DNA of 64,000 nucleotides, from NCBI RefSeq assembly GCF_964355755.1, contig NC_092677.1:5664101-5728100 (forward strand), in the 5' to 3' direction. A program made the position numbers and the translations under genes. The stretch's first letter is position 1. Each line of letters opens with the position of its first letter. Below are positions 1,875-58,400 of the stretch, piece by piece. This DNA comes from Antedon mediterranea. Taxonomy: Eukaryota > Animalia > Echinodermata. The notes below the pieces were generated by a model, which made no database searches, was not told the origin of the DNA, and saw nothing but the letters and a program-made list of their open reading frames with translations.

Positions 1875-2722
1875 CAAAGAATATATATCACAAGAATGAG
1901 TATTCCGCGATTTTTGCATGAGAAATTTGTAACAGAGAGCTCCAGTGAGTGATGCCCGCCCTCATAAGGGTGGATGTATACATACTAAATAAGACTTGAT
2001 TTTATAGACATGATACATGTCACATTAAATAGAATTATGATGATAGTTTTTGCAATTGTAAACTATTTTATAATACATATTTATTAACAAACTAGTGTTT
2101 ATTCACTTTTACAGACAATTATTTACTAACATGCTAAGTTAGTTCACAAAAAAGGCCCAACACAGCAACACCAAAAACCAACGAATATTACTCAGCACGG
2201 CCTATTCTCTACCATTGCCGTGTGCTACTGTACGCCCGGTAAATTAAGTATTGTTTTTATGATATAAATTAGTATAAAACACATGTTATTAATAGGAGAA
2301 AATGTTAAATGTCATTAACATTTATTTGTTTTACCAGAAACAAGTTAAATATAGGAATATTATTAAACTATCCTTTGTGAAAACCCGTAAACACCAACAC
2401 GCCCGGTCACGCTATCGTAGCGCCCGGTTGATAAATCAAACTGTTTATACGGCAGTTTTTACTAAATAAATTGCATAAAACGAACAATTAAATATTCAAA
2501 TACTAGTACAGTATTTAACATGATGTTGGCATGTAGTTGATAACATTTTTTATCATGAAAATACTAGCTACCGGTGGTCTAGCCTTTGATTATTGAAACC
2601 GTCACAAAAAGTTGTATACATCCCAGATACATCCACACTTATGGCGGCGCCCTACCACATGGACAATATTACTGTTACAGAGAAAATCGCGGATTACTCA
2701 TTCTTGTGATATATATTCTTTG
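1875..2722. mobile_element. MITE-like element with long imperfect TIRs
   Basis: caaagaatatatatcacaagaatgagta at 1875 is the reverse complement of the 2695-2722 end. Further inverted matches lie inside. Confidence 0.75.
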
Positions 2723-2976
2723 CTTCAACAAAAGGCTGGCCTAGATTAGATCGATCTAGCCTTAGAGACCTACTAGGCCCAGGCAGGGTAGCCTATCCCC
2801 CATGGCCCAGCCATTATTATTACTACTAGGCCCTAAACACCAAACGGAAACAAACGATACCAAATGAGAATCAGAATGGTGTAAATACCTACCAAACGAA
2901 AATAGATAATTGATATTATGATAAAATTATTTATGAAAAGCCAATTTTTATAGCACCAGGCGCTAGCCTCCTACTA

Positions 2977-3790
2977 GCTAGTTCCGTTTCGTACCTGTCA
3001 TTTATTTCGTAACTTTATTGTGAGTACCACACCTTAGAATTAGGCCTCAAAAATACTTTTAACGAAGGAGATCAAATAGGCCTAGCCTAGATCCTTTAAA
3101 TTGATGAATTTACAGACGTGTTTCTCGCACAGGTTCGTGAATTTTGCATACGCCATGTTCAATGTTGTTGTTTCTATGGAGCGCCAAAAGAGCAATCATA
3201 ATAGAGGGCTAAAAACTCAGTATAATGCGTATATTTAATGCATTTTGTGAAAATTACGTTAAATTTTAAAATATTTTGTCAATATCAATGCAACAAAATT
3301 ATTACTGTTGATAATGTACATGGTTTTCGCAGTTTTCATTAATTTTTAAGAATGAAAATCGACACTGTTTGTTTACCTCAATGATCTAAATAATATTCCT
3401 CTTAGTCGTAAGTTGATATTTGAAAACAGCACATTATTAGCAGTAAAATGTTACAGCATTTTTATTGACAAAATATATTAAAATTAAACGTGTATTTCTA
3501 TAATAGATGTATTAAAAGAAGACGCATTCCACTGAGTTTTTAACTATCTATTATATTTGCACTTTTGGCGCTCCAAAGAAAAAAAATATTGAACTTCGAG
3601 TATGCTAAATTCGCGAACGGTATGCGAGAAACATGTTTGTAAAATCATCAATTTAAAGAATTTATTTGTTACTTTTTATGTGATTCTTCTTCATAAAAGT
3701 ACTTATGAGGCCCAATTTTAAGGTGCGGTATTCACAATAAGTTACTAAACAAGTTTGGAGTCAAAAAGAAGTCGAAATAAAAACAGGTAG
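2977..3790. mobile_element. Foldback/MITE element with its right tip displaced to ~12331-12350
   Basis: About 400-bp diverged arms (ggagcgccaaaag/cttttggcgctcc, aaaaactcagt/actgagttttt). The left end agctagttccgtttcg pairs with cgaaacggaactagct at 12335-12350. Confidence 0.7.
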
Positions 3791-4093
3791 ATAAGATAAG
3801 ATAAGATAAATTTATTGAACGAACGCTTTTGTATCAGCGGCACACGTTTATAAGACGGCAATTGTTCATTTACAAGGCAATGTAAAAACAAAAAGAAAAG
3901 TATCAAAAAATAACATTTAAGTCTTAACTAAGAAGCGAATTATACAAGTAAAATGAAATTAGTAAAAACAAGGTAATCTTACATATCGAACAATACTTAA
4001 CCTATATGATGGAGTTAATGTTATTATCTATTTATTATCAGTATTATTAATATTTTCAAGTTTTAAGCGAATATATTATCATTATTATTACTA

Positions 4094-4130
<37 letters not shown>

Positions 4131-4255
4131 GCTAATTGATTTATTATACTGTTATTATTAAAATAAATGCAACTTTTATATGAATATTTGTTCTTATTAT
4201 ATTTAATATTAATAGTTATTTGTAATTTAATTAAATGTGATACAATTTTTATTAT
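3791..4255 (-). mobile_element. Probable LINE 3' fragment with (CTTAT)n tail, continuing at 12048-12330 past the LTR element
   Basis: (ATAAG)n followed by tttatt (AATAAA on minus). It interrupts the foldback TIR. No ORF recognised. Confidence 0.45.
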
Positions 4256-4946
4256 TGTAATATAATGTTGCGTTGTTGAGGTACTAATGAAGGACTCTGA
4301 CTCGCTTGACTGTCGTAACACATATATTGTTTATTCAGTATAATACTTCAGTACAATATACAACTATAAGTATAGATAAGGAACGGACGGTCAATGATGC
4401 TGTCAGTGAGGTGTGGAGTGTGTAGGTCTGCTTCTGAAGAAGTGGCTGTGAGGTGTGTGCTCCGTGAAATGGCTGTAAGGTGTGTGCTCCGTGAAATGGC
4501 TGTAAGGTGTGTGCTCCGTGAGGTGGCTGTAAGGTGTGTGCTCCGTGAGGTGGCTGTAAGGTGTGTCTGGGCCCTTCTGAACTTGGGGGTATATTGGCTC
4601 AGTTCATTAGCATAATGTCATTACATCATCTGTGAGGGTAACGATTGGTCCTAAGTTGATCCAGGGGTGTTTAAGTGGGAGTGATTAACGGTATAATAAG
4701 GTATTTCTGTGATGGATGACACTGTCAAATCTGTACTTAAATAGTGTCGATCACTCCTGGTTTAACGATGGGAAAGTCACAAAATTAAGCTAAGTGTTTT
4801 CTTTAGGGATTCTATTATAAACTAAATGGTCATTAAAACATCTGGACAAACTCTCCTTTGGACTTTCTGGGTCAAGTTTGTGAACCTATTTGAATTCCGA
4901 TACAAAGGTCAATTTCTTAAATATAAAAGTATATCTTTATATCACA
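4256..4946 (-). repeat. 3' LTR (691 bp) with ~5 copies of a 27-bp tandem repeat at ~4442-4567
   Basis: Direct repeat of 11460-12043, ends TGTAA...ATCACA. Repeat unit gtggctgtaaggtgtgtgctccgtga(a/g). Confidence 0.95.
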
Positions 4947-4972
4947 TCCCTCTGTTTCCCTTTTTTTTTTTC
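4947..4972 (-). other. Polypurine tract
   Basis: Minus strand A-run then GGGAAACAGAGGGA, directly before the 3' LTR. Confidence 0.85.
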
Positions 4973-5069
4973 TGCAAAATCAAAACAAATCTCATCAAAT
5001 ACGTAGACTATGCTATCATTAATTTAGCAAATGTCGTAATTTAAAAATAATCTTGCAAAAACAATTTAA

Positions 5070-8000
5070 TCAGTAATTCGTTGCATTATACAAACGTTTT
5101 ATGAATCGTTTTGGCGATCCACTTATCGGTATCTGTTTATCATTAATGATCTCTTTAATCAATTTATCTGTATCGTTATATCTGTCAATATTCCACCAAA
5201 ATTTGCGATCATTAGATTCGTGTTTTGTTTTATCAGTGTTGCGTTTGGCTGAAGTCGGTTTAGAATACGAAACTAAAACTTGGAAATGTCCTGCTTTAAA
5301 TCTACCTCGGTTTAATGTCATACTTGAATCATTAGGTGCTGTCATAATTAGATTAGTTTGTTCCTTAATTTGTTCCTCTTTCATTTGGAATGGGGCTGCT
5401 AATCCCATGTTATTCTCTACACAGTCAATGTAAGGTTGCAAGTTAAGGGGTTCTACTTTAGTTGGATGTGTAAGGGTATCTGATTGCAATTGGGCTGGTG
5501 TCCTATCATGTTCGTCTACAAATTCAACATTGGTTTCGTCATTTACTACATTAATGGTGTTTTGGATTTTATCGTTATTATCATCAGTTGGTTCATTCAA
5601 CAATTGTTTAAGTTTTTGTAGATGTGTAAAATTTTTGCGTTCTTTGGGTGTTCTCATAAAACAGGGTTTCAGTCTGTTATAATTGAATACGTCGCGAAGT
5701 ATTTCTCCTTTAATCGTCGCTAGGATGTAGTGTGTTCTGTCTAGTACTTCATGAATTACTAATGGTCCGACCCATTCTGCGGCGATTTTCTTTGAATTTG
5801 CCGTTAGTGATGATGATGTTGGCTTGTATAAATATACGAGTTGTCCTACTGAGTAAATTGGACTTTTTTCTAAGCGTTGGGAAATCTTTGAGTTTTGGAC
5901 GTTTTGTTGTGTTCGCTGTAATTGTAGCATTGTCTGTGAAATGTTTTGAAATTTCTTCTTGAGATGTTCAAAGTATTCTTCATAGGAATGAGACAATCCT
6001 GAAATAGGGTTAAATGCTAATGAGGTCAAACTTGGAGGTTGGCGGCCAAAAACTAATTCGTAAGGGGAGTGGTTTCCTAGATGTGGGGATGAAAACGAGT
6101 TATAAGCATAACATGTTGTTGATACAAATCTAACCCAATCTGTTCCGAATTGGTTAAGGTTGACTTTTAACAGGTCCGATACGGTGCGGATATGACGTTC
6201 AACTTGTAAACTACCGTGATTGTGGACGCTGATGATTTTCCTATCAATATTAAGGGTGTTACATAATAGTGTTAATAATTTTCCTGTAAGGGAGGTTGCT
6301 GCATCTGAAATAAGACGAGATGGGGGCCCAAAAATACTGATGACCTTTTGAATTAGTGCTTCGCAAATTGTTTCGGCATCAATGGATTTCAAAGGTACAC
6401 AAATCAAAAATCTAGTTATCTCATCACATACTACCATAATATGTTTAAAACCTGAAGGTGATGTTGGCATACTCTTAAAATCTAGACTGAGTGTATGAAA
6501 GGGACGGTAAGTTGCTGGTACTCGATCGTGTAAAGGACGTAATTTATCGGTTTTGGGACGAAATTGTTGACATCTAAGACACGCTTGGGTATAATTGTTG
6601 ACTTTCTCAAACATAAGGGGCATGTAAAATAATTTCCTAATAGTAAGGTAAGTACGCATCGTACCTTGGTGGATACTTAACAAATTGTCGTGATACTGAG
6701 AAATAATAGTCTCGGCTAAGTTTTCAGGAACAGCTAATTGCAATACAAATTCTCCACCTTTATCTTGGAAAAATAAACGGAATAGTAAACCGTTGCACAA
6801 TATGTACTGCTCTGACTTATTCTGAACTGCACGAGCTGCTTTCTTATCAGCTGGAAGGATATCATGAGCTAAATAATCGTAAACTGGCTTAAAAAATGGT
6901 GAAGTTTCTTGTTCAACGCGTAATTGTTTAACATCTATTGGGAGGTTATAATCTCTAATTATCTTTCTTTGAATAACATCCATTAATCTATCCAAGTCTT
7001 GTTGTTTTGGGATGTGTGCTGACTTAAATTCAGTTATGTTTGGTACTAGTGGTTTGGGAGATGTATACAATTCAACTGGTACATTTCGATGTGTAGTATC
7101 TTTGCTTTGCTTATTTTTGTCTACTAGTCGTTCCTCTGGAGGTTGTCGAATGTTTACATTACGTATTGGGGGTGGCGTTACGATAGGTGGCGTTATGATA
7201 GGCGGTGATCGATGTGCGTTTGTTTGTTGTCTCGTGATTATTTGTGGTGTAGCGGTAGGTTGAGGTGTAGGTCGCGTGTTTGTTGTCACTGGGTTTTGAA
7301 TAATGACAGGCGTTTGTTTGGGTTTGGGTTTATGTAGGTCAGGTATATTTATTCCCATTTGCTTGGCGTATGACCTTGTTACTGGTCTGCAAGTAGATGT
7401 GTTTGTAATCGGGTTAAGAGATTCAGTCTCTGTAATATTAAATGCAATGGGTACAACTTGATCAATTTCGGAATCGTCGTCACGAGGGGCTCGGGAGAGA
7501 AAATCTGCTAAAACTAATTCAGTTCCTTTCTTATAACCAATTTGGAAAATGTATCCGGACAATCGTAATATTAGTTTCTGTAAACGGGGTGTACATGGCT
7601 GATCTTTTGAATTCCAAATTTGTACAATTGCTGAGTGGTCTACGAATGCATCAAATTCGCAACCCTTTAGTAAATGTCGAAATGTTGAAACGTTAATGTA
7701 AAGTCCAAATAACTCTAATTCTGTGACGCTATATCGTTGACAGGCTTGTGGTAAGATTTTGGAATAATAACCTATTATGTGTTCTTTACCGTTTACTGTT
7801 TGTGTTAAATATGAACCTGTTGCGGTTCTTGAAGTGTCGCTATATAGCGTAAATCTACCTTCTTTTCTAGGCATTTGAAGAGTTGGTGGTTTAACCATTA
7901 ATTGTTTAATTTCGTCAAATGCTTTCTGGTGTTCAGTAGACCAACAAAATTTTCGGCGTTTGCTTGCGAGTGTGTGTAACGGACGTAAAATTGATTGTAT

Positions 8001-11459: not shown

Positions 11460-12043
11460 TGTAATATAATGTTGGGTTGTTGAGGTACTAATGAAGGACT
11501 CTGACTCGCTTGACTGTCGTAACACATATATTATTTATTCAGTATAATACTTCAGTACAATATACAACTATAAGTATAGATAAGGAACGGACATTCAATG
11601 ATGCTGTCGGTGAGGTGTGAAGTGTGTTAGTCTGCTTCTGGAGAAGTGGCTGTAAGGTGTGTCTGGGCCCTTCTGAAACTTGGGAGTATATTGGCTCAGT
11701 TCATTTGCATAATGTCATTACATCATCTGTGAGGGTAACGATTGGTCCTAAGTTGATCCAGGGGTGTTTAAGTGGGAGTGATTAACGGTATAATAAGGTA
11801 TTTCTGTGATGGATGACACTGTCAAATCTGTACTTAAATAGTGTCGACCACTCCTGGTTTAACGATGGGAAAGTCACAAAATTAAGCTAAGTGTTTTCTT
11901 TAGGGATTCTATTATAAACTAAATGGTCATTAAAACATCTGGACAAACTCTCCTTTGGACTTTCTGGGTCAAGTTTGTGAACCTATTTGAATTCCGATAC
12001 AAAGGTCAATTTCTTAAATATAAAAGTATATCTTTATATCACA
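11460..12043 (-). repeat. 5' LTR (584 bp)
   Basis: Direct repeat of 4256-4946 with only one partial 27-bp unit. Confidence 0.95.
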
Positions 12044-25600: not shown

Positions 25601-28600
25601 TAAAATTAAAGTTAATTAATTTAATGGCTTCCAGAAATATTAGTTTAACAGGAATCTTATTTTTAAATTAAAAAAAAACAACAAATAATTTATTTTGCAT
25701 CTAATTTGTGTATTTAATAATTACAAAAAAAAATAATGTTACTTACTTGAGTAAGAAGTTTTAGATCTGAAAAACAAAAAAATATACATTATAAAAAATT
25801 AAGAAAAAATACAGATTTAGAAATGGTGCTGAAATGATCAGAGTTCATTGGTCTTTCCCTCTACAATGTAATTTATTTATATTTGTAATAATTAGAAATA
25901 ATAAAAAAAATCACAATGAATATTATCAGTACCATATTAACATTTTATGAAAAAAAAAAGGTGTTTGGCATGCCAGACAGTAGTGATAAATTATCTATAT
26001 AACTTTTTTTTTCAAAACTAAATATATTCTATATTTGTAAAATTTGACCACTATCAATAGTGAAAAGTTCCAAATTATACAAATGATTATGTAAAATATG
26101 GAATAAAAATGTATATTTATTCATTTATGTTGTGGTAAATTCATATAACAAATTTGCATTATTACTATGCAAATTACAATAAAATCTATAAGCTGATCTT
26201 TTGACATTCAACAAATTTCCTCTATGTAAATTGTTGCCTTTAATTAATGGATGAAATCATAAAAATGTAAATTTGAATAAAGTGAAACATAAAATTTAAG
26301 TATTTATTTTCTACATAACACACAGTTACTATTTAAAACATTATCTATTTAGTATAACATGCGATACAAGAAGAAACATTCTCCCAATTCATAAACATTC
26401 ATTAGTTGTATACTATTTTAATAGGTTTAATTCAAATAAATTAATATAAAATAAAAGCAAGCTTGTGTTTAAAATACTCAAAAAATAAAGATGCACAAAG
26501 CTAAAAATTCCCAATTGAAGTTATAAAAAAAAATTTAATGTACAGGTATAAAATAATATTCAATGTAATATGGTAATGAGTTTTGAATCAAATAATATTA
26601 CAGATACAAATAATGGCAAATTATTGAAGAAATAATCTGGTAAGTTTATGTACATGATACAGGATTCTGAATTATCACAAGTAGTCATATTATAAATGAT
26701 ATAAATGGCCAGATGCAGCGAGAAGTGAATGGCAAGAATATATACTACATATCTATGTATTTAAGTGTATTTTGTAGAAGACTGCAACCAAGGTACGAAC
26801 AAAACAGAGGCAATGGCAGGCAATGAAAGACTGTATATAATCTATGGTAAATAAAGCAACCAAAATTATGTATGCAAAGTATGTAAATTATTATAGTACA
26901 GTATTAGGGACAGCAGATAATGAAAGGAAAAAGTTAAACTACCAGATTAGTCAGGCAAACCCTAAAACCGATAAAGATAAATTGCCACAAAAAAACAAAA
27001 ACAACACAAGAACTAAATTGTTTGCCAAAGAAAAAAATAGATTGCTCGTTCTTCAACATTCGCTCATAAAATGTTTTGTAAAAAAGCATGCACATGAATT
27101 AAGCATAAGGAATCCTATTCACGCAGTTTTATTTGGGTTTTTTTTTTAGCTGATCTGAAGAATCTGAAATCCTCCATTTATCATGGCTTGTAAATTAGAC
27201 TCATTTAAACAAACCCAATTTGTGTTTTGTATGTAACATTAAGGGTTGAGGGATGGGGGAAGAAGATAGGTACAAAGAGGAAACATTTTAAAATATATTC
27301 TTATCCACTCAGTAACGAAATATTGTTTTTAATGTTTTATAGGCCTATAAATAATATACCACTAAATACAGTAAAACATTTACGATTTAATACGGTACTT
27401 TGTTAAAACTCTCACTGTCATAGTCGATTGAAATAGTAAAGTACATGTAACGATACACCACTACGACGTTTATATATTTTTAAATTATTAATTAATACAA
27501 ACGTTGAGAAGCAACTGTCAGTAATAACGTTTATTTATTTGTATATTATATGTTTATAATCTAACAGTAGGGCCTACCCACACTCACAGTAATAAAGTTT
27601 ATTTGTATATATTTTTATATTACATCTAACAGTACCAACACTCACAGTAAGAAATTTACGATTCAAATTGCGATCAAAAGTGGTTAATACCTTAACAGTA
27701 TTGTACAGCATTGCAATACTATTTATGTTTATTCTCCATGGGGGCCCATAAATCTAAATCTATACCTCTATGGTTAAACCAAATAATTTGGAATGTTTAT
27801 TTGTATATTATATGTTTATAATCTAACAGTAGGGCCTACCCACACTCACAGTAATAAAGTTTATTTGTATATATTTTTATATTACATCTAACAGTACCAA
27901 CACTCACAGTAAGAAATTTGCGATTCAAATTGCGATCAAAAGTGGTTAATACCTTAACAGTATTGTACAGCATTGCAATACTATTTATGTTTATTCTCCA
28001 AGGGGGCCCATAAATCTAAATCTATACCTGTATGGTTAAACCAAATAATTTGGAATGTTCCATTCATCACAAATCAATACATTTGTAAAAACGTATATTA
28101 AATGTATCACAATAGTATTTTTTAAGAAAATCGGCCTGTCTTCAACATTATGATACTGTACTCGAGCTGTTCAACCGGTTTTCAGCTATTAAAAACAATT
28201 ATCGAAGGAGGAGATAGGAAAATGCGAAGCCTCCTCGCATTTTTGTGGCGGGTATTTTTCAAGATGGACATCCATTAGACAGTGTATACCACGATCGGAA
28301 AACACCCCTATTTGGGGCAAATCGTTGAACCTAAATTCGTTTTAATCGTCAATAACTAATTATCTAACTTAATTTAATTAGTAAACAGGGTTACATCAGG
28401 TGGTTAAAATCAGTACCGAAAGTACGAACCAACTTTATATACCATCGAGTAAAAATTCTAGAAGTAAGGCGCGATTTACCGAATTTTGCCCTTACGTAAA
28501 TTTATATATAGATACTTAAGAGGGTTTGGTGTCATGTAAGGTTTTGGCAATTCTCATAGCAAAAAACTATAAGCATTTCACTACTTTGCATAGATGTAGA

Positions 28601-31600
28601 TGTGTTGTACATACTGTAACTAGCAGAGAGGTTTTGAATCGTGAAAGAAATAGAAATGGCTGTAGTAACTCTTTGGTCACATAGCATGAAGTACTTCGTA
28701 TAATAAATGAAGTTTTATATGTTAGTGAAAAGTTATTTTGTGTAATTTTGAATATAATGGGTAAATATGAACAAAAGAGCTTTGCTGGAAGTGTATCTTT
28801 ATCATAAAAAAAATCCCAATAAAAATAAAAATCAAATACCAAAAACATTACCTTTCATTCAAGTCTTTAGCTAGAACATGAAATAAAAAATAATACAACA
28901 GTTAGACAATACAGGTGTGATGATGGTATAATAGCAACAAAAAAATACAAAACTATATAGTACAGTAATTATTAGGATTTTGAGTGGTCATTGTCTTATC
29001 AAATATCAAACAACAACATTGGGAATAGGTTATGGAAATACACTGGTACATTTATGACAGTACAAAATAACAATTAAAAGTCCAACATTCTTGTTTATAA
29101 CAATTTAAACTTAATCGGGTGTAAGTGTAAGACGGCATCTTAGCGTATGATCATTTTTTAATTTGAGAATAATGTGGTAGTAATATTTTATTACAATTTT
29201 AAATAGCCTAATAATAATTTAAAGGTCTTTATCTTGAGTGGAAACATGTTTGCTATGCGTTTTATGTAAATGGTCATAAGAAATAACATAGATTCTATAT
29301 TACCATTACCACTTGTCTGTGTAAATTGGCCATTAGAGGAAAGTATTTTGTTCAAAGTGAAGAATAAACAGAAAAAGATCAGAAAAATTATATCAATAAG
29401 AGTCATTACAAAGTACCAGTATGTATTATAAATACAAACACCACAAGTACAATGGTAATCATTAATACATATATAATACAATGGATACATTTATAATAAT
29501 GGATACATTTATAATACAATGAATAAAAATACAATACAATGGATACAAATACAATGAATGTAAAATAACACAAAGTACTGATAGTATATTAAAGTAATTG
29601 AAGCTCAGTCTGCAATTGAAAGAAAACCTGTAATGGGTATAAAAGCATAACAAACAATAATGACTACTACTAAAAAAGAAAGTGCAATCTATTCTATTAA
29701 ATATTTGTTAAAACAATGGCGTAATGGCTATGAGCACTCACTGGCTTAGTCCAAGGGTTCCTAAGCTTATAAGGGCTCCTGAACTGCGCCCAGACATAAC
29801 AATTTGTCAAAAAAAAGGCTAAAATGCCTCAAGGCCTCCAGCGTTTGAGAGCCATTTTGGGTCGCTAAACTGCGTTACAAAAAAATTAATAAAAAGATAT
29901 TCATTTATGTTAATATACAATAATTGGTACTTTTTCTATACCAACAAACAATTATATTTTTTTCAATCAATCAATCAATCAATCAATAAACTTTGGAATG
30001 TATAGAATTATAGAGTACTACTACATTTTCATGAATGAAAGTGATGATTACAAATAAAATATCATACAACAGATTCAAATAGACTGTATAATACAATAGT
30101 TCAACAAAGCCAGCTTGCACAACGTGCAGTTGAAAAGTAAAAAGCTGAAATTACAACACATTAGCATCATTTAAAATATATATATATATATATATAACCA
30201 AAAAAAATATATCAAAATTTGAGATAATAAAAGGAAGAAGGCGGGTTCCTAGAAAGCTACAGGATCTTGAGTTGTGGTGTCTGTGAGACAGAGGAACGAA
30301 GGGACAAATCAACAGAAATATCCAGCTAAAGCATGCATTTGTAAAAATTTGTCAATTCTACTGAAGTAAAAAAAAATGCATTTAACAAAACTTTTCTACA
30401 TTTTTTTTTTGGAGACTTTCAAATTACCTTTAGGGTGCAACACTCCTTGAGAAAACTCAAAATAAGGTGTCTGTTCCTCGGTTCTTATTATTTTCGATTT
30501 ACATGTACTGGGACGCAAATCTAGGTCAACATATTTTATCTCTTTCTATAAATAGAATAATTGCAATAATAGAAAAAACATGTATCTGTAAACTATCCTT
30601 TTATACCAATATATAAATCCAACAAGGAGATTTTCAAATGGTTTGTTACCATATTTGCAATTGATACCATTGGTATCTCATATTTTAAAACATTTTAACT
30701 AACTTACAGGTTCTGCAGCTGGTTTTTCCTTTTGATCAGTTTCCGATATTCCTATATTGAAAAGAATATCCACTACAATTAAGTATAATCAACTGACTAG
30801 ACTACTCCTATATGATGAATAGATTTATACAAATTAAAGAAATTACTAATAAATAAATTATGCGCTCAGAGGGCGTAAAATTATTCTTCATATTGAAGAT
30901 AAAGATACAGATAACTCAATATTTTAATAATCATGACGTCACCAATATATTAATTTTCCTGAAATTTAATAGGTATTTTCTACTAATATTTAAACCAAAA
31001 TATTAATAATTTGAAAATTGTTGACACTATCTATGATACTACTACCAATGATATTGTAAACCAACGATGTCGTTGGTTAAAATGCCTTTTCTGAATATGT
31101 AAACAAATTAATATAGTTGTCAATAAAAATATAAAACAAGTCTTCTATTCTTTATGAGAGTATTGATAGAAGTTACACTGTTTTCAATCTACATTTCAAA
31201 ACAACTATATACCTTTCTTAACAAGCTTTCCCTGGGATACTTCCATATACGGTGTTTGTTCTTCATTACTTATAATCCCTCCTGAGGAGGTACTGGCTTG
31301 AAAATCAAGATCCGCATATTGAAGCTCTTCTTCCTAACATTTTCATAAACTAATCAATATCTCTTTTAAAAAAACAATCTAAAATGGACAAATTAACTAA
31401 TTGCCAGATTTTGAATAGACAAAATAATTCTTCTATCTCAAACGAATAAAGAAATGAAAATTAAACAAAAATGTTTTAAGGGATTTTGGTGTATATTCTC
31501 TAGCAAAAAAGTCAACTTTGCTAAGAAATTATCTTTAATTTGCAAAAGTGTCCGTCTAAAAATCTAAAATACCTTGTGTTTATCTTCAATTTCTGATATT

Positions 31601-34600
31601 CCTATAGTAGCATATAAAAGAAAATTAATTAAAACATGATAAAATAGATATACCACTTTGAATGAATTACTGCATGTATGTACTATAATTATTTACTACA
31701 TATATAATACTAGTCTATAACTTATTTTACTTTACATTTAAAATGCAATTAAAATAGTTTCAGGTAGCATATACAGTACATTAAGACTGTAAATTAATAA
31801 ATCAAAAACAAGATCTACAATCATGCTTTCTACAAAAAAAAAAGTTGTTTGTAATATAAATATCGTTTGTATTATTACGTTTGTTAGTTTCGATCAATTA
31901 AACACAACATTTAAATGTTAGAAATTATCTATTCTACAAAATGAATATACACAAAAGAAGATGATAATTATAAAGTATAAGACATTATAAAATGCAACAC
32001 ATCAAACCAATCAACTATGACTCAGACTAAATGCTAAATATGTTAGTCTAAAAAAGAAAAAAAATATAATAAATAAATGATATGCTAATCCAATACTATA
32101 AAATTAATATACCAATCAGAACAATTATATATTTTAAAAAACCGTCCACTTACAAAAATAAAAGCATGGGTAGATTAAAAAGCGGGACAAATAGGTTTTG
32201 TGGTTACATAGGACAAATGTTAAGCTGTCTATTTCTACACTATAACTGCAATACTAATTCATTATAATTAGTAGAAAAAAATCGGCAGCATAATGAGAAA
32301 GGTTAGTAATGTATGTTTGGTCAGTTGTTAGTAAAAATTACACACATTGCAGTGAAATCATCTAAGAACTGTCCACAATGACAAAGTTAAGCATACATTT
32401 TGCCAAATGATATTCTTCCAAAAATACACTCACTGGGTGAAGAATAATAAAATGAAGTGATTTTTTTGGCATTTTTTTCTACTTTGCTACTGTACTTATT
32501 GTAAATAAGCAGCAAAATTGTCTTTAAAAATATGACATCACCAGTAGACTTTCTGCCACGCTGTCCAACTTCAGCATAAGTGACAGGTTGTTCAAATGAC
32601 ATAGAAGAACCAGATTCAACATTTTCATAAATTATTTCGTCCTGTAAATACATTTTGGCCAAGTCACAATAGTAATAATATCCTGGACTTATAAAGCGCC
32701 TAATGTTGTGAATGACCGGCGGCTTGCAGCGTAACTGGGCTAAATTGTGCACAAGTGAAACAGGGGTAGATGGCCAAGTACAATGGGGTAACCACTCCTG
32801 GGATGCACTGGATTCTCGCAAACCAGGTTTGTAAACTGGACATCCAGTCCAAAAAGACTAATTTTTACCAATGAAGAACACATTTTGTTTTGCGGCACAC
32901 CGGCCTTATAGCACTTAACCACTTGAATCAACATTGCTTTGATTATTATATTCACACGTTTAAAAAAAACTTAATTTTAATACTGGATATCTAGATAGAC
33001 ATAGATCATATTTTCTATAAATGCTTCAGAATTGATGCATATGTCTTTACACAATTATTGTCATATAAATTGGGATTACATAACTTTAAAAATAGCTATA
33101 ACAATATATATATTCAAACATTTTTTGTGCATGCCACTGCGTTTTTAAAGTTTTTAAATAAAGATTCTTACTGTATAACCGATGTTGAAGGATCCTCCTT
33201 AAATAAATATAGAACAAACAGATATTGTAATATTAACAACTTCTAATACAAAAATAAATAAACCTGTACTTCATTAGCAATTTTAACAATACAATAATTA
33301 AATTTCTGAGACAGAATAGTTTGCTTGATTGTGTTTGGCCACTCTATAACTACTCCCTTAACACACCCTGCCCCCATCCCCACTTCACCGTCCACCTCAG
33401 TAATAACTGCTGGTTAATTGAGAAAAATAATTTGTAAATGCAAACATTGACAGCTTTAGAATTCACTGTATCGTAAATTATTGTAATGTTTACTGTAACT
33501 TAACAATCAAATAAAAACAAATTCTACAATAAATGTATACTCTATTGCTCATAAAGAGTCAGAGAAACCTAAACAAAATAATAAGTTGATTGATTGATTG
33601 ATTGATTGAAGTAAGAGATATACATTCAACTCTATTGAAACAGGACTTTTTGGAATGCATATCAAGTAAAAAATTAATCATGTTCCACCTGAAGCTAAAA
33701 AAAAGTAATCAAGAGAATAAATAAATAGCAAAGTTTATACTCACCAGATGTTGCTTGATGTTCTGCTAAAAGTTCACTACCTTCATCAACAGGATTTGTC
33801 TTCGAAAACAAAATTGAAACAGATTTTACATTATTTTAAGCATGTTTTAAAATACTGTAATGTTTTTTTTCAATATGACAGTAAAATACGTAGAATAAAT
33901 CAATTCTTTTTAAAATCAACATTATTAATTGTTGGTTGTTTGATGTGGTAGGTAATTTCTTGCCTTGACAGTTGTAAAATAAGATGATTTTGAGATTGAT
34001 AGGAAATTCAGAAAACGTAAATAAATAGCAAGATAGCAAGGCATAACATTGTAAGCATATATGCTATATTTATTATCTATTTAAGAATTTGTAGAAAAGT
34101 GAAAAAAATACAATATACTGTATATTAACATACAAAATAACTAGACATAATTTAATGTTAATGACACAAAATAATGGTAGAATTAATTATTGACCTAGCA
34201 TTTTAAGAGTAAGGTTTGGCAGTAGATATTTATATACGACAGATATACCAATATGATATAAAATAGATAATTATTCATATATGGTCTTTTCAAGTTAGTT
34301 GATACTATTCTCATAGTACCAACCTTTGATGTTTCTCCAGATTTAGGAAGTGCAGCAGTGTCTTCAGTTTCTGCAGACTGGTTTGGTGAACTGGATTTGA
34401 TTACAACAAGAGGAACATCTGCACCATCAGGTTCTTCTCTTTCACTGCCGTTCATGCGACTCTCTTCACCACTTCTACTACCACTGCTGTTGGGTTGACA
34501 CAATAAAAGAAAATAATATTACAACACAGGTACCTCTGTACCATCAAGACATTCTCTTTCATTCACCCTCAGCTGATATTCTACACTCCTCTGTTGCTAC

Positions 34601-47432: not shown

Positions 47433-47702
47433 CAGTATGTCCAATGGAAAGACAAGAACAGGCTGCTGCAATCATTACCTTTCACATAATAATAAACAAC
47501 AAATTTGTAATACCGTATTTATTCGAATAAACGCCCCCTTTGTATATACGCCTCCCTCGAATAAACGCAATATTGTATTAAAACACAATAATATTTGTTG
47601 ACACAAATTGTATTTTGATACAATTTGTACTGTATTTTTTTACTCCCCAAATAAACGCCCCCCTAAAAACCCTCCTGAACAATACACGCCGTGGGGCGTT
47701 TA

Positions 47703-49255
47703 TCTATATATAAATTTACGTAAGGGCAAAATTCGGTAAATCGCGCCTTACTTCTAGAATTTTTACTCGATGGTATATAAAGTTGGTTCGTACTTTCGGT
47801 ACTGATTTTAACCACCTGATGTAACCCTGTTTACTAATTAAATTAAGTTAGATAATTAGTTATTGACGATTAAAACGAATTTAGGTTCAACGATTTGCCC
47901 CAAATAGGGGTGTTTTCCGATCGTGGTATACACTGTCTAATGGATGTCCATCTTGAAAAATACCCGCCACAAAAATGCGAGGAGGCTTCGCATTTTCCTA
48001 TCTCCTCCTACGATAATTGTTTTTAAAAGCTGAAAACCGGTTGAACAGTTCGAGTACAGCATCATAATGTTGAAGACAGGCCGATTTTCTTTAAAAAATA
48101 CTATTTTGATACATTTAATATACGTTTTTACAAATGTATTGATTTGTGATGAATGGAACATTCCAAATTATTTGGTTTAACCATGGAGGTATAGATTTAG
48201 ATTTATGGGCCCCCTTGGAGAATAAACATAAATAGTATTGCAATGCTGTACAATACTGTTAAGGTATTAACCACTTTTGATCGCAATTTGAATCGCAAAT
48301 TTCTTACTGTGAGTGTTGGTACTGTTAGATGTAATATAAAAATATATACAAATAAACTTTATTACTGTGAGTGTGGGTAGGCCCTACTGTTAGATTATAA
48401 ACATATAATATACAAATAAACATTCCAAATTATTTGGTTTAACCATAGAGGTATAGATTTAGATTTATGGGCCCCCCTGGATAATAAACATAAATAGTAT
48501 TGCAATGCTGTACAATACTGTTAAGGTATTAACCACTTTTGATCCCAATTTGAATCGCAAATTTCTTACTGTGAGTGTTGGTACTGTTAGATGTAATATA
48601 AAAATATATACAAATAAACTTTAATACTGTGAGTGTGGGTAGGCCCTACTGTTAGATTATAAACATATAATATACAAATAAATAAACGTTATTACTGACA
48701 GTTGCTTCTCAACGTTTGTATTAATTAATAATTTAAAAATATATAAACGTCGTAGTGGTGTATCGTTACATGTACTTTACTATTTCAATCGACTATGACA
48801 GTGAGAGTTTTAACAAAGTATTAAATCGTAAATGTTTTACTGTATTTAGTGGTATATTATTTATAGGCCTATAAAACATTAAAAACAATATTTCGTTACT
48901 GAGTGGATAAGAATATATTTTAAAATGTTTCCTCTTTGTACCTATCTTCTTCCCCCATCCCTCAACCCTTAATGTTACATACAAAACACAAATTGGGTTT
49001 GTTTAAATGAGTCCAAATAAAAAAATTTGACTCATTTTGTTTCTCTCTCGGAAGTAATTCCCAGGGTGCTAATTTTGGTTGACTACATAAATCATTGTAT
49101 ATATTTCTTCGTTTCTGTAAACGACAATGTATTATAGTCCTGCGGTACGTACATTTGAAATCTCCATTTTTTTCTCGCTGGAAATACTGTGTATTCGAGA
49201 ACCACCTGTGGGCACGACCTAGATGGTACGCGAGCGAAGCGAGCGTGCCATCTAG
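47703..49255 (+). mobile_element. Non-autonomous Helitron, complete copy
   Basis: 5' TC, 3' hairpin ctagatggtacgcgagcgaagcgagcgtgccatCTAG, inserted between A and T with no TSD. Internal ~250-bp tandem duplication. Confidence 0.85.
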
Positions 49256-49294: not shown

Positions 49295-52200
49295 TACTCT
49301 AGTAGCTAGATCAACTTTCGTATGCACTTTGAGGTCCAGAGAATTTGACTTCAGAAATTGGTTTAGGGTGGTCAAACAATCATTTTTGGCTTGGTTACAC
49401 ATTTTGAAAATGTGGCGAAAGGTCAAAAGGTCAGGGTCAAACGTTATAAGATCAAACACCATTATGTCCTTAAATCTCGACAACCACTGGTCACAGCGAG
49501 GTAATTTTGGTCTCAAATTGATCAGAAGGTATACATTCATATTCAGTCTAATGAAACATTTTAGTCGAAAATGACCGGAAATGCCATTTCTGACCTTTGA
49601 CCCATAAACCAGGGCATGTCTGTATCTCTGTAACTATTGGCCGTAAAGACTTGAATTTGGGCTCAAATTGTTCGAAATATACATTTAGTTATTTGTTACA
49701 CATTTTGAACAATGTTACAAAAGGTCAAAAGGTCAAGGCCAGGGGTTATATGAATAAACACAAATAGGTATTTTTATCTCGGCAACCACTGGTCACAGCG
49801 AGTAAATTTTGGTCTCAAAATGTTCAGAAGGTATACATTCATATTCAGTCTAATGAAACATTTTGTAAAAAATGACCGGAAATGACATTTCTGACCTTTG
49901 ACATACATACCAGGGCATCTTCTTATCTCTGTAAGTACAGGTCGTAGAAACTTAAATTTAGTATCAAATTGTTAGAAATACACATATTTACATTCATTCT
50001 AACAGAAAATTTGGATAAAAGATGATCATAAATACTATTAATTACTAATCTTTTAAATGAAAAACATATCTACCCAACTTATCATTAGACAGTAATGTTA
50101 TGCAATAATTGATGCTTAATGATTTCATTATACTGTAGGAATTAAAACAAATCCTTTACTGTTTGTAATAATTGTACTTTTGCTTATAATAATGCTAGAA
50201 ATTATTGTTGACCCCCGAACGTTCAAACATTTTGAGAATGCTACTGAAGTAATTTACTGTAGTTACCCGAATAAAAGCCTCGGGCATTTATTTATTCAGG
50301 GAAGGCGTTTATTTTGTTGGGTGTAATAATGGTAACATGTATAATCAACTAAATACACCCCAGATATATATATATAAAACATATGTATATATAATAACGG
50401 GATTAAACCTCATTCTATCCTGGAGGAAGTACAATCATGTAATAAAAGGTATCGGAGACCACAATAATATATTATTACGTAACACTGTTGCATAATAGTT
50501 TTGAATGTCAACGACAAAACTTATACATATACACGTCTGTTCCCAGTGTAGATAATAAAACAATATATATTTCTGGAGATTTATTATCAATACCACTAGA
50601 AACTTTGACATGTTTTAGGTACTGAAAGCATTGACAATAAAACCATCAGAAGTTTATCATGATAAAATCATACTACAACACTGTACTACAGTACACAAGG
50701 GTGTTTTCAGGAAAGCTGGAAATATTGTACAATAGTAATGAAACTATGTATTGGCATTTAAAACTATGCAAAAGATTGTTGTCAAATTGTAGTTACAAAC
50801 AAATAGATGATAGAATGAAGATCCATTATGAGTGCAATCGTGTCAGGATAATGATGTGTCATTGTTTTATATCATTATACTGGCACATGGAGGTGAAGAT
50901 CCATTTAATGGAATCTATCACTTTTATTTTAAAAGACAGAAACATTTCGTTAAAAAGCATAAAGAGGAAAACGAATCATGTAAATACCTTTTATCAGTTG
51001 AGAAACGAAATACAATTATTAAAATTAGAGTATTCCTTCAAATAAACGCCACCATTCTCTCAAATAGAACACCATGTGGAATAAACGCCCCGCCACATGC
51101 ATTTACACAATAATTGTATCACGTCAACACATTTCATTAACTACCATAATCTACAATTTACCAAGCATTTTGACATAATTTTATCACTTTTTGATATTAA
51201 TTGTGCAGTATTTGTTTACATCTAGGTGGTATTTATTTGATTATACATGTTACCATTATACCCCAAATAAAGATGTCTCCTTTACCCCTAAAAACCATTT
51301 TGAACAATAAATTCCTGGGGCGTTTAATCGGATACATATGACAAGTTACTTCTAGCATTCTGAAAAGAACTGTTGAGCTTAACGTTTCTATCTATTTTCT
51401 ATTGTACAGCGCTTTGGTCACTTGGAAAAGCGCTATATAAATCCAAAATTAAATTAAAATTAAAATTATCAAAATGTCCTCGGGGACAGCAATAACTAGT
51501 ACTTGAAATTAAAACAATTTAAGTATCAGTTATTGCATAACATTACTGTCTAAGGATAAGTTGTGTAGATAAGTTTTTTGTTTGAAACATTATTAAGAGT
51601 ATTTCTGTTCATCTTTTAACCACATTTTCTATTACAATGAATGTAAATATGTATATTTCGAACAATTTGATACCAAATTTAAGTTTCTACGACCTGTACT
51701 TACAGAGATATGAAGATGCTCTGGTATGTGGGTCAAAGGTCAGAAATAGCATTTCTTATCATTTTTTACTAAAATGCCCCATTAGATGGAATATAAATGC
51801 ATGCCTTCTGAACATTTTGAGACTTGCTGCGACCAGTGGTTGTCGAGAAAAAAGTACCTTTTTTTATTTGTTCAAATAACCCTTGACCTTGATCCTTTGA
51901 CCTTTTGTAACATTTTTAAAAATGTGTAACAAATAACAAAACATATATTTCGAACAATTTAAAACCAAATTCAAGTGTCTACGACCAGTAGTTACGGAGA
52001 TACATACATGCCCTGGGTTGTGGGTCAAAGGTCATAAATGACATTTCCGGTCATTTTTTACTAAAATGTCCCATTAGACTGAATATAAATGTATACCTTC
52101 TGATTAATTTAAGACCAAAATTACCTCGTTGTGACCAGTGGTTGTTGACATTTAAGGACATATTTATGTTTGGTCTTATGACCTTTCACCTTGACCTTTC

Positions 52201-52330
52201 GACCTTTCGCCACATTTTCAAAATGTGTAACCAAGCCAAATATGATTGTTTGACCACCCTAAACCAATTTCTGAAGTCAAATTCTCTGGACCTCAAAGTG
52301 CATACGAAAGTTGATCTAGCTACTAGAGTA
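49295..52330. mobile_element. Large foldback element with ~1-kb inverted arms
   Basis: tactctagtagctagatcaactttcg... is mirrored at 52330. Arms contain ~300-bp tandem subunits. Inner ends lie at ~50365 and ~51220. Confidence 0.8.
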
Positions 52331-55400: not shown

Positions 55401-58400
55401 AAAAACTGGCGATTTCAAATGTACGTACCGCAGGACAATAATACATGTCATTTACAGGAACGAATAAATAGACTGTGATTTATGTACTCAACTAAAATTA
55501 GCACCCTGGGAATTACTTTCGAAAGAGAAACTTGTCACAAAATGAGACCAATTGTTTAAGTCAAATTTAAACAAACTTAATTTGTGTTTTGTATGTAACA
55601 TTAGGGTTGAGGGATGGGGAAGAAGATGGGTGCAAAGAGGAACAATTTTTAAATATATTCTTTATTCATTTAGTAACGAAATATTAATTGTTTACATGTT
55701 TTACAAATAATATACCACTAAACACAGTGAAACATTTCGATGTATTACTTTGTTGAAACTATCACCGTCCTAGTCGATTGAAATAGTACATTACATGTAA
55801 CGATACATCACTACGACGTGTATATGTTTATATAATGTAAAACAATTGTGAAAACCACCTCTTTTCAGGGCAAATCATAAATTCGATTTCATCGTCAATA
55901 AATATTAAATTATCTAACTCAACTTAATTAGTAGGCCTAATGGTTTTCAATTGCTTCTCAGAGCCAATTCATACTTAAGTTGGTTCCAACCCTACCCACC
56001 AAAGTTGTTCTGCGTTTAGGGCATGTGATGCACCGTAGGCCTATCCTCTACTGGCTTTACAACGCTACTCTCATGCCAGTGAGGGAAGGGTGATGTGGGT
56101 GGTTTAACTGCAATAATAAAGATTTGTACATAATATACGGCGACTGAAAACGTTAGCTCATTATCCGTTTAAAAAAAATCTATATCCAACAACCTCTGCA
56201 GCACAGATTGAAAAATAAATGAATCGAATTTCTGTTATGAGTATACAGTACTTGCCTTTACGACGCCTGAGGGAATATACACTTGTGGAACAGAGATTGG
56301 AATGTTCCATTTATCGCAAATCAATACATTTGTATAAACGTATATTAAATCCATCAAAATAGTATTTTTTAAAGAAAATCTGCCTGTCTTCAACATTATG
56401 ATGCTATACTCGAGCTGTTCAATCGGTGTTTAGCCATTAAAAACAATTATCGTAGGAGGAGATAGGAAAATGCGAAGCATCCTCGTATTATTGTCTGCGG
56501 GTACTTTTCAAGATGGACATCCATTAGACAGTGTATACCACGATTGAAAAACACCCATATTTGGGGCAAATCGCTGAACCTAAATTCGTTTTAATTGTAA
56601 AGAACTAATCATCGAACTCAATTTAATTAGTAAACAGGGTTACATCAGGTGGTTAAAATCAGTACCGAAAGTACGAACCAACTTTACATACCATCGAGTA
56701 AACATTCTAGAAATAACGCGCGATTTACCGAATTTTGCCCTTACGTAAATTTATATATAGATATACCTATATATATGTAAGTCCATCATAAGAGTACATA
56801 AAAATATAAATGAATGATAAGCATTGGCCTTATAATTGTTTAAATTAAAAGTATATTTAGGATTTTTCCGTCCAAGTTAAAACTATATATGAAGCCACCT
56901 AACTGTTTAGACAGAAGAATACACTTACTGCCAATAACAAAATAAATTTGGTTTTAACTTTAATGTCAGTCGTATTTAAAAAAAGATGTTACATACAGTG
57001 TTATGTAGGGTGAAATGCTTGAAAATGCTGATCTATGAAACCAAACCGAAAGACAAATTAATTGGGTATTATTGGTTTAGGACTTTTCTTTATCTGTTGT
57101 CTTTTATAATTTAAGTCATAAAGACAAATGGTAATAAAATGAATTCTCATCATAGCAAACCTGGTCGCCAGTAGACCTATTATTAGTTGCTGCAGCCTGG
57201 TTAGGTGAACTTGAATGAACAGGGACCTCAGCACCATCAGGACCTTCTTTTTCATTGACCATCATTTGATACTCTTCACCACTTATATTTGTATTATCAC
57301 TGCTGTAGTTAACACACAAAAAAACCGATTATTAAACTATCTTAAAGTTGTATTGTCCCCACAAACATATAAAAGAAAGACTAATAAAATCAGACTTTGA
57401 ATAGGTCATTTTGCAGCTATAATAAACTAAATCCCATTTTCTAGAAAAAAAAAAGAGCAAGAAAAATGTTTTCATTAATAATAAAATACAAAATAAACTG
57501 TTGAATTTAACCCACCATTTCTTGCTTTTAATGACAGTTTTTAAAATGGAATGTGTTTTCAATCCAATTTTTGGTAAAAGTGATGGGGACAAATCAAGTG
57601 TTGCTACAGTATCACCATTACCACTTCGAACACCACTAACTCAATAGCAAAGTTTATTATCATGATTTTTAATAAAAGGCTTTTGTAATTGTGTTCAAAT
57701 ATAATAACATATCAAGCATAGTAATGTTGCAGACTAAACTCACCTGTATTTCTTTTTATCTTTATTACTGTAATCAACTATTAAAAAAAAAAAAACAATA
57801 AAAAAAGATTAAAAAGTAATTATAGTAATTGATATTGAATCTGACACTTGAGGCATGGTTGACATGAAATTCTGTACTCTGCATGCAAAATTAACTTCCA
57901 TTAATTAAAAAAGTTCAATCTGTAAAATATACTTAGCATTAATGAAAACATTTCTTCTGGTTGCGATTCGTATAATGATATAAGTAGTTCTGGAAATATA
58001 TAGTGGCTGGAAAAGACACCAGTCGGCGTCATAACGCATCATAGCAACTGGAGAAGTCAAGCTGACAGCTAGACGAAACTGTATTGCCAACGTAAGTTTT
58101 TTTGGTTTACTATCAAAGAACTACTTATATCATTATACTTAGCATTGAAAACAAAAGACTATTGGAAACAAGCTTTTGGCTTATAACCTCTATATGAATG
58201 AGCAAACAATGTTTCTTGACCCCATTTTGAATTATTGACTGAATCAAACAAACAAACTTATTAATAGGCCAATGATCTACTCAATAAATGAAAAAAAACA
58301 ACTCACATAATTACTTACAGGATTTGTTACAGTAGTCAATACAACAAAATCCACAAAAATAAAGACAGCAATAACAGACAAACTGACGGAATGTTTTACA

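Follow-up and report, generated by a model that had tools for sequence, protein, structure and literature searches.

The window analysed here is a stretch of 64,000 nucleotides (nt) from the genome of Antedon mediterranea (NCBI RefSeq assembly GCF_964355755.1, contig NC_092677.1, positions 5,664,101 to 5,728,100). This AT-rich animal DNA carries two paralogs, gene A and gene B, on its minus strand, and both encode putative receptors with immunoglobulin (Ig) domains. The subject of this work is a group of six exons of gene B, termed the tyrosine cassette. The gene B model comprises 29 exons from 40996 to 15790 (Table 1), all with AG acceptors and GT donors and joined in one open frame of 1467 amino acids (aa). 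The exon with the start codon was not found in the window. The predicted protein contains, in this order, a signal peptide, three Ig domains (V, I and C2-like), a membrane helix, an 87-aa exon product with a cysteine string, a polar linker, the cassette, half an Ig domain, four Ig domains and a BNR/Asp-box sialidase-like domain. The V exon encodes two cysteines. The region following the membrane helix has a predicted length of 1140 aa, and the Ig and sialidase-like domains that come after the tyrosine motifs span about 820 aa.

The cassette consists of three pairs, designated pair 0, unit 1 and unit 2. In each, a short exon of phase 1 to 0 precedes a long exon of phase 0 to 1, and every long exon has two motif tyrosines. 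A first-pass annotation of the window had described six tyrosine motifs arranged as three pairs through exon-pair duplication, with an ITIM (immunoreceptor tyrosine-based inhibitory motif) followed by an ITSM (immunoreceptor tyrosine-based switch motif) after about 23 aa. The AG acceptors, GT donors and single frame of the four minus-strand exons that it named, those of units 1 and 2, were confirmed. The six tyrosines, their pairs, exons and phases also stand: Y512 (IIYENV) and Y529 (VTYAEV) belong to pair 0, Y556 (LQYADL) and Y579 (TPYMEV) to unit 1, and Y610 (IKYVDL) and Y633 (TPYFEF) to unit 2. A seventh tyrosine, Y506, matches no motif. The spacing of 23 aa holds for both units, but pair 0 is spaced at 17 aa and is not of the ITIM-then-ITSM type. 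The strict ITSM consensus is TxYxx[VI], for which Y579 alone qualifies; Y633 has phenylalanine at +3, and its counterpart in the RefSeq relative P0002 has leucine. The ITIM consensus [ILVS]xYxx[IVL], as quoted in a preprint on the Hydractinia Alr proteins (bioRxiv 10.1101/2022.03.04.482883), is satisfied by Y512, Y529, Y556 and Y610. Acidic residues are located upstream of the cassette tyrosines. According to residue shuffling, the density of motifs is above chance even when unit 2 is left out, both for Yxx-hydrophobic sites (4 sites, p=0.007) and for ITIM/ITSM-like sites (4 sites, p=1e-5).

The deletion of unit 1, of unit 2, of both or of the entire cassette leaves the frame of gene B open, and the deletion of any one of the six exons alone breaks it. 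This bears out the earlier proposal that the units run from phase 1 to phase 1 and could be skipped in frame.

The duplication of units 1 and 2, also proposed in the first-pass annotation, was confirmed. Their long exons are identical at 71 of 118 nt and their short exons at 22 of 29 nt, and these scores were reached by none of 500 shuffles in either case; at the protein level, 27 of 54 residues are identical (0/1000 shuffles). The inner introns and flanks of the two units are unalignable (46, 13 and 184 out of 200 shuffles score as high). The proportion of synonymous differences (pS) is 0.81, which corresponds to saturation, versus 0.30 for nonsynonymous differences (pN), and the 21 identical residues among 39 aa cluster at the tyrosine motifs. 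Judged by this comparison, units 1 and 2 arose by an old duplication, and both copies are under purifying selection as protein. The constraint on frame and tyrosines despite saturated synonymous sites is indirect evidence that the two units are used. An assembly artefact as the origin of the duplicate units was rejected, since they are just 60% identical and their introns are unalignable. For pair 0, 49 and 32 of 500 shuffles reach the DNA scores against the two units, and the protein comparison gives p=0.001 against unit 1 and p=0.44 against unit 2. The descent of pair 0 from the same unit, as a third copy, is not shown by these alignments. Its short exon is the least certain exon of the gene B model, and no counterpart of this exon was found among the tabulated relatives.

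Table 1. Exons of gene B, in the order of transcription, and extent of gene A (positions in the window; P numbers denote related proteins)
Feature	Position	Strand	Remarks
Signal-peptide exon	40996-40948	-	hydrophobic frame, AG/GT, ends in phase 1; similar N-termini in P0006 and P0011
Ig V-type exon	40667-40341	-	Pfam V-set E=0.0026, below curated cut-off; 69-84/109 aa identical to 5/6 tabulated relatives
Ig I-set exon	39441-39136	-	Pfam Ig_3 4.5e-18, I-set 1.7e-17
Short third Ig exon (C2-like)	38705-38478	-	Pfam Ig_2 E=0.0037, below cut-off; homology to RefSeq relatives
Transmembrane exon	36173-36102	-	best 19-aa hydropathy 3.5
Likely N-half of split Ig, then cysteine string (8 Cys in 24 aa)	35528-35268	-	profile match; Anneissia keeps 32/78 identical
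Three linker exons, basic patch and polar linker	34994-34961, 34486-34324, 33799-33745	-	9/11, 53/55, 15/18 aa identical to P0003
Pair 0 short exon	33197-33172	-	26 nt, phase 1 to 0; AG/GT, required for frame
Pair 0 long exon, IIYENV (ITIM-like, YxN) and VTYAEV (ITIM)	32641-32542	-	100 nt, phase 0 to 1
Unit 1 short exon	31601-31573	-	29 nt, phase 1 to 0; acceptor the weakest among 41
Unit 1 long exon, LQYADL (ITIM) and TPYMEV (ITSM)	31333-31213	-	121 nt, phase 0 to 1; second-weakest acceptor of 41
Unit 2 short exon	30751-30708	-	44 nt, phase 1 to 0
Unit 2 long exon, IKYVDL (ITIM) and TPYFEF (ITSM-like, F at +3)	30545-30428	-	118 nt, phase 0 to 1
Two micro-exons leaving the insert	28870-28852, 25766-25747	-	6/6, 7/7 aa identical to P0003 and P0004
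C-half of split Ig (strands D to G)	25422-25291	-	Pfam V-set positions 69-95 of 109, E=0.0066; family profile positions 66-100
Four intact post-membrane Ig exons	25027-24713, 24142-23789, 21546-21223, 20880-20554	-	Pfam V-set/I-set; 2/4 without B-strand cysteine
Seven exons, BNR/Asp-box sialidase-like domain up to the stop codon	19664-15790	-	frame; Pfam BNR_2 2.3e-19 on relative P0003
Gene A, tandem paralog	63590-52472	-	12 exons, 841 aa without stop; same layout through post-membrane Igs

Relatives of gene B and their isoforms

A search with the cysteine exon matched 7 of 19 candidates, all of them uncharacterised A. mediterranea RefSeq proteins with 76-86% identity. The full profile scan gave eight matches, namely five of these Antedon proteins, one protein from Anneissia japonica and two chance matches to unrelated repeat proteins (P0014 and P0015), which were discarded. 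The A. japonica protein is identical to the cysteine exon at 32 of 78 positions and retains the cysteine string. So far as the searched libraries show, the family appears to be a crinoid one. The membrane helix and the BNR domain are joined in the same order as in gene B at four distinct Antedon RefSeq loci (P0003, P0004, P0006 and P0010), and a search with the BNR region matched four Antedon proteins alone among 1217 candidates of 776-2470 aa. The protein models of the family members are public but unnamed. The literature searched, outside of which lie most subscription journals and the supplements of genome papers, contained no description of an ITIM/ITSM receptor family in crinoids or other echinoderms and none of the gene B architecture.

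A profile of three relatives matched sialidases in the PDB down to 2.3e-7. Gene B contains two Asp boxes, found by pattern match, and the R-x-P motif of the first arginine, which is present in all five proteins compared; both features are common to the GH33 sialidases. The arginine of 'MSTR'/'FMRN' in solved sialidases, which we take to be the second arginine of the catalytic triad, aligns with the serine of 'ISCS', and gene B has the same stretch. At the putative position of the nucleophile, where GH33 enzymes presumably carry Y-S-x-L, all five proteins have EESDL, in a region outside the displayed alignment where both folds are unreliable. The sialidase-like domain is probably not an active enzyme; the presumed second arginine is replaced by serine, and a glutamate apparently stands in place of the nucleophile tyrosine.

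The tyrosine cassette is present at one of the six distinct RefSeq loci examined. The RefSeq isoforms X1 (P0008) and X2 (P0002) contain a one-unit cassette with three motif tyrosines (PVTYADL, EIKYVDL and QTSYFEL), and in isoform X3 (P0001) of the P0002 locus the cassette is absent in frame at the annotation level. The suggestion of exon skipping thus gains annotation support from isoforms X2 and X3 of a paralog, at the level of the whole cassette. The unit 2 long exon is identical to the cassette exon of P0002 at 32 of 39 aa, and P0002 retains the tyrosines of TYADL, KYVDL and SYFEL. The pair 0 long exon has its homologue in the part of P0002 that contains PVTYADL (13/30 identical, 0/1000 shuffles). 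The search with the unit 1 long exon gave no match among 12 candidates, which is a weak blank for a 40-aa query. At the corresponding insert, other family members have YQMM, YWMM, YSNL or YSQL, or lack such motifs altogether. The V domain of gene B is nearest to P0006, and its last Ig domain is nearest to P0011. By these similarities gene B looks like a mosaic of P0003-like linkers, a P0002-like unit 2, a P0006-like V domain and a P0011-like last Ig domain. Expanded short tandem peptide repeats are found within the insert of P0006 and within a later Ig domain of P0010, another sign of insertion tolerance in the post-membrane region.

In DNA contigs, which represent two samples at most, one of them possibly the source of the window, the unit 2 long exon shows at least four residue-changing differences and at least one codon loss among the differences listed, none of which alters a tyrosine. 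Run X1 was rejected as RNA and treated as DNA, as it covers intron pieces and contains no exon joints. The summed contig depth in X2, which is not a copy number, is about 2000-6000 for the Ig and cysteine exons versus about 60-170 for the cassette; there is a hint of a large family with few cassette-bearing members. Two contigs of run X4 diverge from the unit 1 long exon at 31285, beside its first tyrosine motif. Another unit 1-like exon elsewhere in the genome is hinted at.

Location and use of the cassette

We propose, with a probability of about 0.6, that the cassette is an optional, spliceable SH2-docking insert in a predicted single-pass receptor of a diversified crinoid Ig receptor family. 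The location of the cassette in the cytosol is itself likely. The sequence that follows the helix matches positions 2-40 of the intact-Ig profile of the family with a score of 24.3, versus 10.9 +/- 2.6 for shuffled columns (1/100), and the exon after the insert aligns to the back half of an Ig domain in both the Pfam V-set and the family profile. The cysteine string and the cassette appear to interrupt one split Ig domain. An Ig domain split in this way needs both halves on the same side of the membrane, which favours a cytosolic cassette. The insertion estimate for the cysteine segment, obtained with our own approximation, is +0.7 to +1.5 versus -3.8 to -5.3 for the true helix, and 4-6 lysines and arginines follow the segment versus 2-4 before it in all seven proteins. 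The B-strand cysteine is missing from 8 of 24 intact post-membrane Ig domains and from the split one. The cysteine-rich 'TM' of yeast CYSTM proteins proved to be palmitoylated and not membrane-spanning (PMC10840359). The CYSTM/CYSPD proteins described there are small and have a C-terminal cysteine segment, whereas that of gene B is internal, lies in a large protein and has no Pfam match, which makes the likeness an analogy only. With AlphaFold2, neither the split Ig domain nor the insert nor the last propeller blades of P0002 and P0010 could be modelled usefully, the mean predicted local distance difference test score being 44.6 for P0002 (residues 333-646 under 50) and 40.0 for P0010; Ig proteins alone were among the Foldseek matches listed.

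Several observations weigh against this proposal. Taken singly, just two of seven proteins had an N-half that scored above each of 50 shuffles in a hidden Markov model test, the Ig profile of which included two poor P0010 rows that the later profile and the cysteine counts left out. The N-half also failed to align to an Ig7-type profile (8/100 shuffles). Pooled over seven related proteins, sequons amount to 39/123 asparagines outside versus 60/378 after the helix, which favours a cytosolic position, but the pooled rows are not independent and gene B by itself lacks the contrast (4/17 vs 10/55, p=0.73). The hydropathy of the cysteine segment, 1.75-2.0 over 19 aa, is sufficient for a second helix, and a helix is predicted there. 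Such a helix would give a two-pass protein with the cysteine segment spanning the membrane and with the cassette, the later Ig domains and the sialidase-like domain outside the cell; the tyrosines would then form an acidic stalk, possibly sulfated, rather than SH2 sites. Ig and sialidase domains are usually extracellular, both canonical cysteines, including that of the B-strand, are kept in 16 of the 24 later Ig domains, and acidic residues precede the tyrosines. We nevertheless regard this topology as rather unlikely, because the apparent split Ig domain flanks the cysteine segment on both sides, basic residues are more numerous after the segment than before it, the insertion estimate is positive and ITIM-type residues at -2 and +3 are far above chance.

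The use of the cassette has to be weighed in the same way. Gene B is a model predicted from the sequence, and its RefSeq relatives are automatic predictions. None of the RefSeq models has a two-unit cassette, and P0003, the closest of them in the flanks (53/55, 15/18, 6/6 and 7/7 aa), has no cassette. The first-pass annotation had named conservation of the tyrosines in orthologs as a test of its reading, and P0003 does not conform to it, skipping and absence being indistinguishable here. Among the 41 splice sites scored in both window paralogs, the unit 1 acceptors come 40th and 41st, which is compatible with regulated skipping and might equally signal decay. These acceptors and the five of six distinct RefSeq loci without a cassette, including P0003, would suit a cassette or a unit 1 that is seldom if ever included in the transcript, with a P0003-like form as the working protein. 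The survival of the frame, the splice ends and all four tyrosines despite saturated synonymous sites and unalignable introns, together with the homologous cassette in isoforms X1 and X2, makes this improbable. An ordinary ITIM/ITSM tail that ends with the tyrosine exons would be conceivable if the downstream Ig and BNR exons were a separate gene fused by prediction. An in-frame stop after a possible acceptor near 29626, the automatic nature of the RefSeq models and the existence of early-ending family isoforms (P0001 and P0012) speak for two genes. The downstream part, however, begins in the middle of an Ig domain without a signal peptide, the same join is made at four separate RefSeq loci, and the phases agree at every junction in both window paralogs; we consider such a fusion improbable as well.

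Proposed function and comparison with known receptors

If the cassette is a cytosolic docking insert, a ligand would be bound by the three outer Ig domains of gene B. The cysteine string would be located inside the cell, where it is likely to be palmitoylated and would tether the tail to the membrane rather than span it. The disordered insert of about 85-240 aa would loop out between the halves of the split Ig domain, and its acid-flanked tyrosines may be phosphorylated by a Src-type kinase. A tandem-SH2 phosphatase of the SHP type could dock at each ITIM/ITSM-like pair, and a Grb2-type adaptor could dock at YENV. Depending on whether none, one, two or three exon pairs are included, the receptor would have more or fewer docking pairs, and the downstream Ig domains and the sialidase-like domain would stay untouched. 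The differing motif sets in the insert of the paralogs (YQMM, YSNL, YSQL or none) would result in a receptor family whose outputs are partly activating and partly inhibitory. Exon structure, frame, duplication, purifying selection and domain order rest on the sequence; the kinase, the partners and the ligand are what we infer. According to published reports, PD-1 activates SHP2 when the ITIM and ITSM of one chain engage both SH2 domains (PMC6994217), the PD-1 tyrosines Y223 and Y248 are 25 apart (PMC7078208), and alanine or valine at phosphotyrosine (pY)+1 of the ITIM is the class reported best for SHP1 docking (PMC8631942). In the ITIMs of gene B, this position is occupied by alanine at Y529 and Y556 and by valine at Y610.

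A broader scheme can be put forward only tentatively. The proteins may constitute a large exon-shuffling family of immune receptors of the crinoids' own, in which outer Ig domains and one helix are followed by a cytosolic Ig domain split by a palmitoyl anchor and a spliceable rack with at most three SH2-docking pairs, and the Ig rod ends in a dead-sialidase propeller sensing an intracellular ligand, with splicing and exon exchange among paralogs reprogramming inhibitory versus activating output. If the family is of the ITIM/ITSM type, variable Ig receptors with ITIMs would have been invented independently once more, in addition to Alr, FcoR and those of vertebrates, and the family would offer a clean test case for whether the number of docking sites is tuned by frame-neutral exon pairs. 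Invertebrate Ig receptors with ITIM tails and splice-changed motifs are already known; the architecture of gene B is the part that the searched literature did not contain. It is also the larger surprise, with Ig domains and a sialidase-like domain beyond the membrane helix and a signalling insert within an apparently split Ig domain. The protein would be unusual under either topology, be it a two-pass protein with two Ig ectodomains or a receptor whose Ig rod and pseudo-sialidase lie in the cytosol.

In receptors of the PDGFR/KIT type, the kinase insert is a variable loop that carries docking sites with phosphotyrosine (YxxM, YxN) inside a folded cytosolic domain. The insert of gene B is similar as a docking loop in a folded domain, but the host domain is here apparently an Ig and not a kinase. 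Butyrophilins combine an Ig ectodomain and one helix with a folded cytosolic ligand-sensing domain; this is a B30.2 domain, in place of which gene B has tandem Ig domains and a sialidase-like domain, and the comparison is an analogy only. PD-1, BTLA and CD33-related Siglecs have short tails with one motif pair, whereas gene B has three pairs amid its long predicted post-membrane region. The short tail of CD33-related Siglecs, which stops behind an ITIM plus an ITIM-like motif, is absent from gene B. The Siglec- or PD-1-like tail envisaged in the first-pass annotation is unsupported, given the roughly 820 aa that follow the motifs, the one 'ITSM' off consensus and the cassette at one of six loci. 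Of the features of the ITIM/ITSM receptor class, the Ig ectodomain and the membrane helix are present in gene B. As described for PD-1, BTLA and CD33-related Siglecs, it also has an ITIM followed about 23-25 aa on by an ITSM or ITSM-like motif, and alanine or valine at ITIM pY+1 (PMC8631942, PMC6994217).

The Botryllus FcoR are an expanded, recombining Ig-receptor family with several tyrosine motifs per tail that are exchanged by alternative splicing (PMC12582321). Gene B is similar in belonging to an expanded invertebrate Ig-receptor family with multiple tail tyrosine motifs and predicted motif change through splicing. The ectodomains of FcoR combine Ig and Sushi domains, their motifs are swapped when an intron is retained and an early stop results, and they are paired with FF genes (PMC12582321). 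In gene B, unlike in FcoR, an exon pair can be lost as a whole in frame, and the motifs have folded domains behind them. No Sushi domain was found in Pfam scans of 25 window frames or five relatives. FcoR adjoin their cognate motif-less FF partner; the neighbour of gene B within the window is a paralog of its own family. The Hydractinia Alr resemble gene B as clustered single-pass V/I-set receptors with exon shuffling and with ITIM or immunoreceptor tyrosine-based activation motif (ITAM) tails. They are set apart by description, since the accessible part of the preprint reports unusual Ig sequences and an Fn3-like fold and describes no post-membrane Ig or sialidase-like domain (bioRxiv 10.1101/2022.03.04.482883). 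Before the membrane helix of gene B, Pfam, which could miss a divergent fold, gave no Fn3 match, and the third domain matches Ig models weakly. Gene B would work like FcoR and Alr if the docking-insert reading holds, yet it is a member of neither family, nor is it a Siglec.

Gene A and the rest of the window

The insert of gene A carries YQMM and YSQL, and no match to the tyrosine cassette was found within the span of this gene. No counterpart of the two micro-exons was found in gene A. Gene A may be truncated or end early, because no BNR exons were found before gene B. It contains a duplicated Ig exon (54058-53747 and 53638-53345), and a short duplicate of the 3′ end of its V exon is located inside the next intron (63188-63141, minus strand).

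Repeat copies with an internal 262-nt tandem unit (27188-28514, 47698-49023, 56297-56766 and 61644-62688; 92-100% identical) sit in introns of both paralogs and between the paralogs. A 509-nt inverted repeat (49295-49803 and 51822-52330, 90% complementary) lies just past the last exon found in gene A and is probably a DNA transposon. An element resembling a long terminal repeat retrotransposon, classed by eye, occupies 10744-5073 on the minus strand with a 322-aa gag-like and a 1574-aa pol-like frame, and is bounded by direct repeats (4580-4879 and 11677-11976) that are 99% identical. Broken frames at 46437-45678 on the minus strand resemble, by eye, the 3′ end of the reverse transcriptase of a long interspersed nuclear element.

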